Source: Escherichia coli
GTDB taxonomy: Bacteria > Pseudomonadota > Gammaproteobacteria > Enterobacterales > Enterobacteriaceae
Assembly: GCF_036507355.1 (NCBI RefSeq)
Contig: NZ_AP027877.1
Direction: 5' to 3' (one strand)
Length of the DNA stretch: 64,000 bases
The position numbers and the translations under genes are program-made. This document shows, piece after piece, positions 15,814-15,852 of this stretch. Under the pieces are notes generated by a model. The model did not search any database. It had not been told where the DNA came from and worked only from the letters and a program-made list of their open reading frames with translations. Numbering within the stretch: the stretch's first letter is position 1; each line of letters starts with the position of its first letter.

Positions 15814-15852
15814 CAGTGTATTGGTAGCTAAAAAGCCAGGGGCGGTAGCGTG
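15814..15852 (+). promoter_or_regulatory. JUMPstart element with ops (GGCGGTAGCGTG at 15841-15852) in the colanic acid operon leader
   Basis: cagtgtattggtagctaaaaagccaggggcggtagcgtg; exact ops 12-mer; about 180 bp upstream of wza. Confidence 0.85.

Follow-up and report, generated by a model that had tools for sequence, protein, structure and literature searches.

The element at 15814–15852 (+) of the window, by which we mean the whole 64,000-nucleotide stretch of E. coli DNA analysed here, is, with high confidence, the JUMPstart/ops element of the colanic acid (cps/wca) operon leader, at which RfaH is loaded for the expression of the distal genes of wza–wcaM. Its sequence is CAGTGTATTGGTAGCTAAAAAGCCAGGGGCGGTAGCGTG, it belongs to the Rfam family RF01707, and it ends in the ops core GGCGGTAGCGTG, the RfaH recruitment and pause site, which is matched exactly at 15841–15852 (+). 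The identification is based on the sequence, strand, position, family and conservation of the element, all of which were observed here; every family-defining feature of JUMPstart/ops that could be tested was present, and none failed. This is the previously described cps JUMPstart of E. coli and, as such, is already known. What it does has been known since the 1990s, and the way RfaH acts at ops has by now been worked out in atomic detail. The JUMPstart/ops of the E. coli K-12 cps (wza) leader was reportedly described by Stout in 1996 (J Bacteriol 178:4273) and by Hobbs & Reeves in 1994 (Mol Microbiol 12:855), both cited in PMC9976346.

We searched both strands of the window for GGCGGTAGCGTG and found exactly two sites, 15841–15852 (+) and 40212–40223 (+), so that the exact 12-mer claimed in the preliminary description was indeed present in the colanic acid leader. 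The degenerate consensus GGCGGTAGNNTG recovered the same two window sites and no more, and the 12-nt ops consensus GGCGGTAGnnTG is satisfied at both. When two mismatches were allowed, nine ops matches were obtained in the window against 4.99 expected; the seven extra matches are at chance level. The ops of the window is identical to the ops12 oligonucleotide used in the structural work (PMC5995543).

The RF01707 covariance model aligned to 15814–15852 with a score of 57.3 bits (E 1.6e-10; model positions 1–38 of 38) and to 40185–40223 with 59.2 bits, also over its full length. Both scores are above the gathering score of this family, which is 35 bits. The context that had been called JUMPstart-like is therefore a full JUMPstart at both sites, each copy matches the family consensus from end to end, and the interval given earlier for the cps copy, 15814–15852, is exact. 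For the second copy, which had been placed at 40186–40223, its existence was upheld, while its start was not: the element really begins at 40185, a slip of one base. In a permissive Rfam scan of 15500–16100, JUMPstart was the sole family above threshold. A mir-320 match in the same region was discarded as noise (18.7 bits against a threshold of 55.5).

The element is located in an untranslated leader within the intergenic region between yegH (−) and wza (+), and the wza ATG is found 178 nt further on. The assignment to the colanic acid operon leader in the preliminary description was thus correct, as this region is followed by wza-wzb-wzc-wcaA…wcaM. The ORF of wza spans 16031–17170 (+), and the entire unit, wza-wzb-wzc-wcaABCDEF-gmd-fcl-gmm-wcaI-cpsB-cpsG-wcaJ-wzxC-wcaKLM, occupies 16031–38862 (+) and comprises 20 genes over 22.8 kb according to the ORFs and the annotation of E. 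coli strain G4/9. The ops motif reads 5' to 3' on the plus strand, on which wza and all 20 operon genes are also encoded; a check of its orientation against wza confirmed that it is on the non-template strand. A non-template-strand ops is required for RfaH recruitment (PMC9765446, PMC5995543).

From 15000 to 17500 the sequence matches strain G4/9 at 100% identity, and about 4800 complete E. coli genomes match it at 95% or more. The gene order in the G4/9 RefSeq annotation is dcd-asmA-IS110 transposase-yegH(−)-wza-wzb-wzc-wcaA…wcaM-galF-O-antigen genes-gnd-ugd-wzzB-his, and the window ORFs agree with it. The gene for RfaH itself, rfaH, is a core gene of E. coli and is located outside the 64-kb window.

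In the mechanism that we propose, transcription would begin at the RcsAB-activated cps promoter in the yegH–wza intergenic region and run rightward, and RNA polymerase would be expected to pause at ops, at U11 (15851). The exposed non-template GGCGGTAGCGTG would fold into a small hairpin, with a C3:G8 pair and T6 flipped out, that the N-terminal domain of RfaH would read. The C-terminal domain would then refold, and RfaH would ride the polymerase through the operon. The bound RfaH would exclude NusG/Rho-dependent termination, lower both pausing and H-NS-aided termination, and recruit the ribosome to an mRNA that does not have a good ribosome-binding site, the outcome being the expression of the distal genes of wza–wcaM. 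The copy at 40185–40223 would act likewise for the O-antigen cluster.

The RfaH occupancy of this operon and the molecular steps are taken from published work. RNA polymerase stops at U11 of ops, which is a consensus pause, and the non-template hairpin of ops, with the C3:G8 pair and the flipped T6, is recognised by RfaH (PMC5995543). Once bound, RfaH hyper-stabilises the ops pause and refolds its KOW domain; it is then believed to bring in a ribosome, which scans to the start codon, and anti-backtracking factors are required for the polymerase to leave the RfaH-stabilised pause (PMC11001881). Along the whole unit RfaH remains bound to the polymerase and counters H-NS/Rho-mediated termination (PMC9765446).

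The RfaH role that had been claimed for this leader also has backing in the literature. In strain CFT073, wza–wcaM is one of only eight leader ops sites with an RfaH ChIP-seq signal; the signal was seen in the Δhns ΔstpA background and was absent in a ΔrfaH strain (PMC9765446). In wild-type CFT073 grown in rich medium, the wza promoter is silenced by H-NS and no RfaH signal is present (PMC9765446). As the signal was obtained only in Δhns ΔstpA, the element is idle under many conditions. The wca operon is also reported to be subject to JUMPStart-RfaH antitermination under RcsA/RcsB control (PMC9976346). The JUMPstart explains how, after being switched on by the Rcs stress system, this 23-kb, 20-gene capsule operon is transcribed from end to end in spite of the REP hairpins and intergenic gaps within it.

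The REP-type hairpins are found at two places inside the operon. One is a GC-rich hairpin in the wzc–wcaA gap (19813–19843), and the other is in the wzxC–wcaK gap (34770–34840), where Rfam naRNA4 matched on the minus strand with 79.7 bits. They are plausible obstacles for the RfaH-modified polymerase. A terminator scan through the operon gave 25 sites against 22.4 expected, that is, no excess. Another RNA motif in the operon is the algC RNA motif (RF02929, 76.6 bits) at 30331–30380 (+), in the cpsB–cpsG gap directly before the phosphomannomutase gene.

The second JUMPstart, TAGTGCACTGGTAGCTGTTAAGCCAGGGGCGGTAGCGTG at 40185–40223 (+), belongs to the leader of the O-antigen (rfb) cluster: on its upstream side galF ends at 39930, and on its downstream side the ATG of the first O-antigen glycosyltransferase gene is at 40323, about 99 nt beyond the element. 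An alignment of the two copies, as the preliminary description had proposed, showed the same 39-nt architecture with 33 of the 39 positions identical. The 3' 20 nt are the same in both (AGCCAGGGGCGGTAGCGTG and the A before it), and all six substitutions are confined to the 5' half (positions 1, 6 and 8, and loop positions 17–19). The closing pair of the stem is C-G in the O-antigen copy and U-G in the cps copy. The O-antigen element shares with the cps copy its place on the non-template strand, and it is likewise targeted by RfaH (wzx in PMC9765446). Between ops and the first ATG there are about 99 nt at the O-antigen cluster, against 178 nt at wza.

Outside the element the likeness disappears. 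The flanks of the two copies, taken as 39 or 100 nt on each side, showed an ungapped identity of 27–36% (around 30%), which is about random. The 33 identical positions of 39 inside the element, together with the random-level flanks, indicate a sharply bounded module that is common to two otherwise unrelated leaders. Both copies precede long surface-polysaccharide gene clusters, those of colanic acid and of the O-antigen.

The O-antigen cluster itself (40290–50000) is of the O17/O44/O73/O77/O106 wzx/wzy family, and its ORFs are intact in the window. Compared with the window, the G4/9 record carries an IS3 insertion in this cluster that is absent from the window, as well as 56 gap openings, and many of its genes are annotated as frameshifted; many of the differences between the two are gaps of a single base. 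These gaps and frameshifts look like assembly errors in the G4/9 record.

We then analysed the conservation of the cps element. Of the 5426 complete E. coli genomes, 4818 matched a 60-mer around it with at least 80% query coverage, and the identity was at least 99% in 3919 records. In the K-12 derivative DH5alpha, 58 of 58 positions matched. No annotated feature lies under the cps element in any RefSeq record among the matches listed.

For the comparison across species, a scan with the Wza protein, one genome per GTDB species, yielded 80 wza loci at 87–100% protein identity. These came from Escherichia, Citrobacter, Salmonella, Enterobacter, Lelliottia, Kosakonia, Phytobacter, Franconibacter, Atlantibacter, Trabulsiella, Cedecea, Buttiauxella and other genera. 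Among the loci with upstream sequence, a JUMPstart with ops was present in 76 of 79 wza leaders of other Enterobacteriaceae species, and a sample of the most divergent leaders all scored above the Rfam threshold (40–59 bits). The distance from the start of ops to the wza ATG was 186–199 nt, with a mode of 189–190, in 62 distinct leaders. A per-base footprint over the 80 leaders showed that JUMPstart is one of several conserved islands in a diverged yegH–wza intergenic sequence.

An alignment of 56 distinct sequences resolved the pattern within ops. Positions 1, 3–9 and 11 never vary; an A is seen once at position 2 and three times at position 12, and position 10 varies freely (G, A or C). The 5' half of the JUMPstart is conserved as strongly as ops. 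In the published ops mutagenesis, G4, G5, A7 and G8 are essential for RfaH recruitment and C3 and T6 are important, T11/G12 constitute the ops pause signal, and positions 9–10 are the 'nn' of the consensus (PMC5995543). The cross-species pattern agrees with this single-base mutagenesis; the check is confirmatory, and the footprint fits the published mutational map base for base.

The wza leaders that do not have ops are those of three Pseudescherichia-like genomes (P. vulneris NBRC 102420, 'Escherichia sp.' ESNIH1 and the MAG UBA7338), and Rfam finds no JUMPstart in them. About 32 nt are gone from these leaders, corresponding to 15825–15856 of the window, and with them ops in its entirety and the 3' arm of the JUMPstart stem. 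They retain the yegH–wza synteny, an RcsAB-like box, the promoter blocks and the proximal leader. As these three related species have the operon without ops, ops is not indispensable for having the cluster. The wza leader of Citrobacter amalonaticus S646 is unusual in another manner: an insertion of about 118 nt, perhaps a small repeat or a MITE, is present between the conserved ATTAACTGC block and the proximal leader, and ops is 308 nt from the ATG.

We considered whether the element could be something other than a functional RfaH loading site. That the 12-mer occurred by chance in an AT-rich intergenic region is refuted for practical purposes. The sole point for it is that the motif is short, against which stand the dinucleotide-preserving shuffles (a mean of 0.12 matches, with two matches in none of the 100), the Rfam E-value of about 1e-10, the sharp-edged 39-nt likeness of the two copies, and the position of the element, which is kept across genera. 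It could also be argued that ops is a mere strong consensus pause site or a relic of the JUMPstart family, and that colanic acid is governed by RcsAB and H-NS at initiation with no meaningful contribution from RfaH. The fit of ops to the general consensus pause (PMC5995543), the silent promoter and absent RfaH at this locus in wild-type CFT073 in rich medium, and the three Pseudescherichia-like leaders without ops are all compatible with this view. However, the central bases of ops are dispensable for pausing and needed for RfaH (PMC5995543), and it is these bases that are invariant in the 56 distinct leaders from many genera, while the neighbouring leader diverges. RfaH, moreover, occupies wza–wcaM once initiation is derepressed (PMC9765446). 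We therefore regard a bare pause site or relic as highly improbable. A paper by Navasa in 2014, cited in PMC9765446, reportedly also deals with how RfaH controls the synthesis of colanic acid in E. coli K92.

A different question is whether the element acts additionally, or instead, as RNA, with a nascent hairpin of the 5' half modulating the ops pause or backtracking, or with short leader transcripts titrating RfaH in the manner of RirA. Rfam classes JUMPstart as a cis-regulatory RNA with a 5-bp consensus stem, which in the window is UUGGU (15821–15825) paired with GCCAG (15835–15839) on the plus strand, closing a 9-nt loop with the first GGTAGC repeat. All five pairs can form in the window (U-G, U-A, G-C, G-C, U-G). 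Pairing is possible in 99.3% of the cells across the 56 sequences, with U-G, U-A or C-G as the closing pair. When the RNA is folded only as far as it has been transcribed at the ops pause, this stem is the fold of lowest energy, at −2.7 kcal/mol, a value no lower than that of shuffled sequences. By arithmetic, its last base is 13 nt behind the 3' end of the U11-paused RNA, a distance that we infer to be about where an exit-channel hairpin would act. The strong conservation of the 5' half also fits a function in RNA, and RirA, a 73-nt leader RNA containing ops, binds RfaH when polymerase is present (PMC6358824). The pause-stage fold and the RirA precedent thus leave room for an RNA-level contribution. 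Against it, the stem showed no significant covariation: no pair changes on both sides, and scores as high as those observed came up in 95–108 of 500 shuffles. Folded as RNA and as DNA, with and without its flanks, the element did no better than shuffles (z from −0.95 to +0.67), and the Rfam stem does not form when the 39-mer of the cps copy is folded in full. The whole RfaH cycle has also been ascribed to the ops DNA and RfaH, and the ops pause is distinct from hairpin-stabilised pauses (PMC11001881). Taken together, we consider a role as RNA to be unlikely, though worth some weight, and retain the loading of RfaH at the ops DNA as the most likely function of the element.

Upstream of the JUMPstart, a candidate RcsAB box, TAAGAAATATCGCA, was found at 15534–15547 (+) and is conserved across species. 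It matches the 14-bp RcsAB consensus TaAGaatatTCcta (PMC4325325) at 9 of 14 positions, including all six upper-case positions. It is followed by three conserved blocks on the plus strand, which emerged from the 80 leaders, a 5-species alignment and the per-base conservation: TTGTCAA… at 15570–15596, CTTAATATAATTCTTAAAAA at 15612–15631, which contains TATAAT (15617–15622), and CCTTGCCTG…TTAGCTGTAACA at 15653–15681. Transcription probably starts within these blocks (15570–15681), upstream of the JUMPstart. From the candidate box and the blocks we infer a promoter roughly 180–300 nt upstream of the JUMPstart, with neither candidate −10 preferable on sequence alone. A consensus promoter scan of 15400–16100 returned a single site, 15698–15725, which we rejected as it lies in the least conserved intergenic stretch. 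A 49-aa 'hypothetical protein' is annotated in RefSeq at 15573–15722 (−), inside the cps promoter region. This ORF is probably an annotation artefact, because the conservation there is blocky and not codon-like.

Downstream of the element, the untranslated leader from ops to the wza start codon extends over 15853–16030 (+), and its 178 nt are longer than the 40–67 nt quoted for the ops-to-ATG distance of wzx, kps and rfa (PMC9765446). Conserved blocks are present in this leader at 15878–15895, 15915–15940 and 15990–16030. The intergenic blocks besides the JUMPstart are 95–100% conserved across about 80 Enterobacteriaceae species; they may be promoter elements, sites for a regulator or an sRNA, or a track for ribosome loading. 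No Shine-Dalgarno-like purine run precedes the wza ATG; the RfaH-dependent waaQ and rfb operons have likewise been reported to be without a Shine-Dalgarno-like sequence (PMC6358824).

RNAalifold analysis of the ops-to-wza leader from 32 species gave no structure except a 6-bp inverted repeat at the start codon. This invariant A/U-rich repeat (16027–16032 and 16051–16056) brackets the start codon of wza and is without covariation. It reads AUCAAU…AUUGAU in most species, and the window has one mismatch (AACAAU).

It is conceivable, if distinctly unlikely, that the conserved parts of the leader other than ops have functions of their own that are so far undescribed. The 5' half of the JUMPstart, for one, could restrain backtracking or adjust the pause that RfaH hyper-stabilises. 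The blocks within 15878–16030, along with the constant distance of about 190 nt between ops and the ATG, could be a track for ribosome loading and scanning, or the site of an unknown regulator.

Compared with other known systems, the cps leader of E. coli K-12 is at the same locus and has effectively the same sequence, as judged from DH5alpha. There the element is likewise located between the RcsAB-dependent promoter region and wza, and nothing of substance differs. What sets the strain of the window, a wild-type strain close to G4/9, apart is an IS110-family insertion further upstream, between asmA and yegH. We observed it as a 341-aa ORF at 12498–13523 (−), about 2.3 kb upstream of the cps leader, that is an IS110-family transposase in the G4/9 annotation.

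The waaQ (rfa) leader shares the ops core and likewise depends on RfaH, and it is also without a ribosome-binding site (PMC6358824). It differs in giving rise to the RfaH-binding sRNA RirA (PMC6358824), whereas no such RNA is known from the cps leader. In the group 1 capsule (K30-type) clusters of E. coli and Klebsiella, a JUMPstart stands before an export operon containing wza-wzb-wzc, as it does here (PMC6128206). In those clusters, however, the JUMPstart comes after galF and before wzi, and expression is reported to be constitutive and not tightly Rcs-dependent.

A whole-window Rfam scan also identified two RNAs that are expected for this region, the his operon leader (RF00514, 131 bits) at 59431–59554 (−) and the sRNA STnc240 (RF02074, 68 bits) at 61851–61925 (+).
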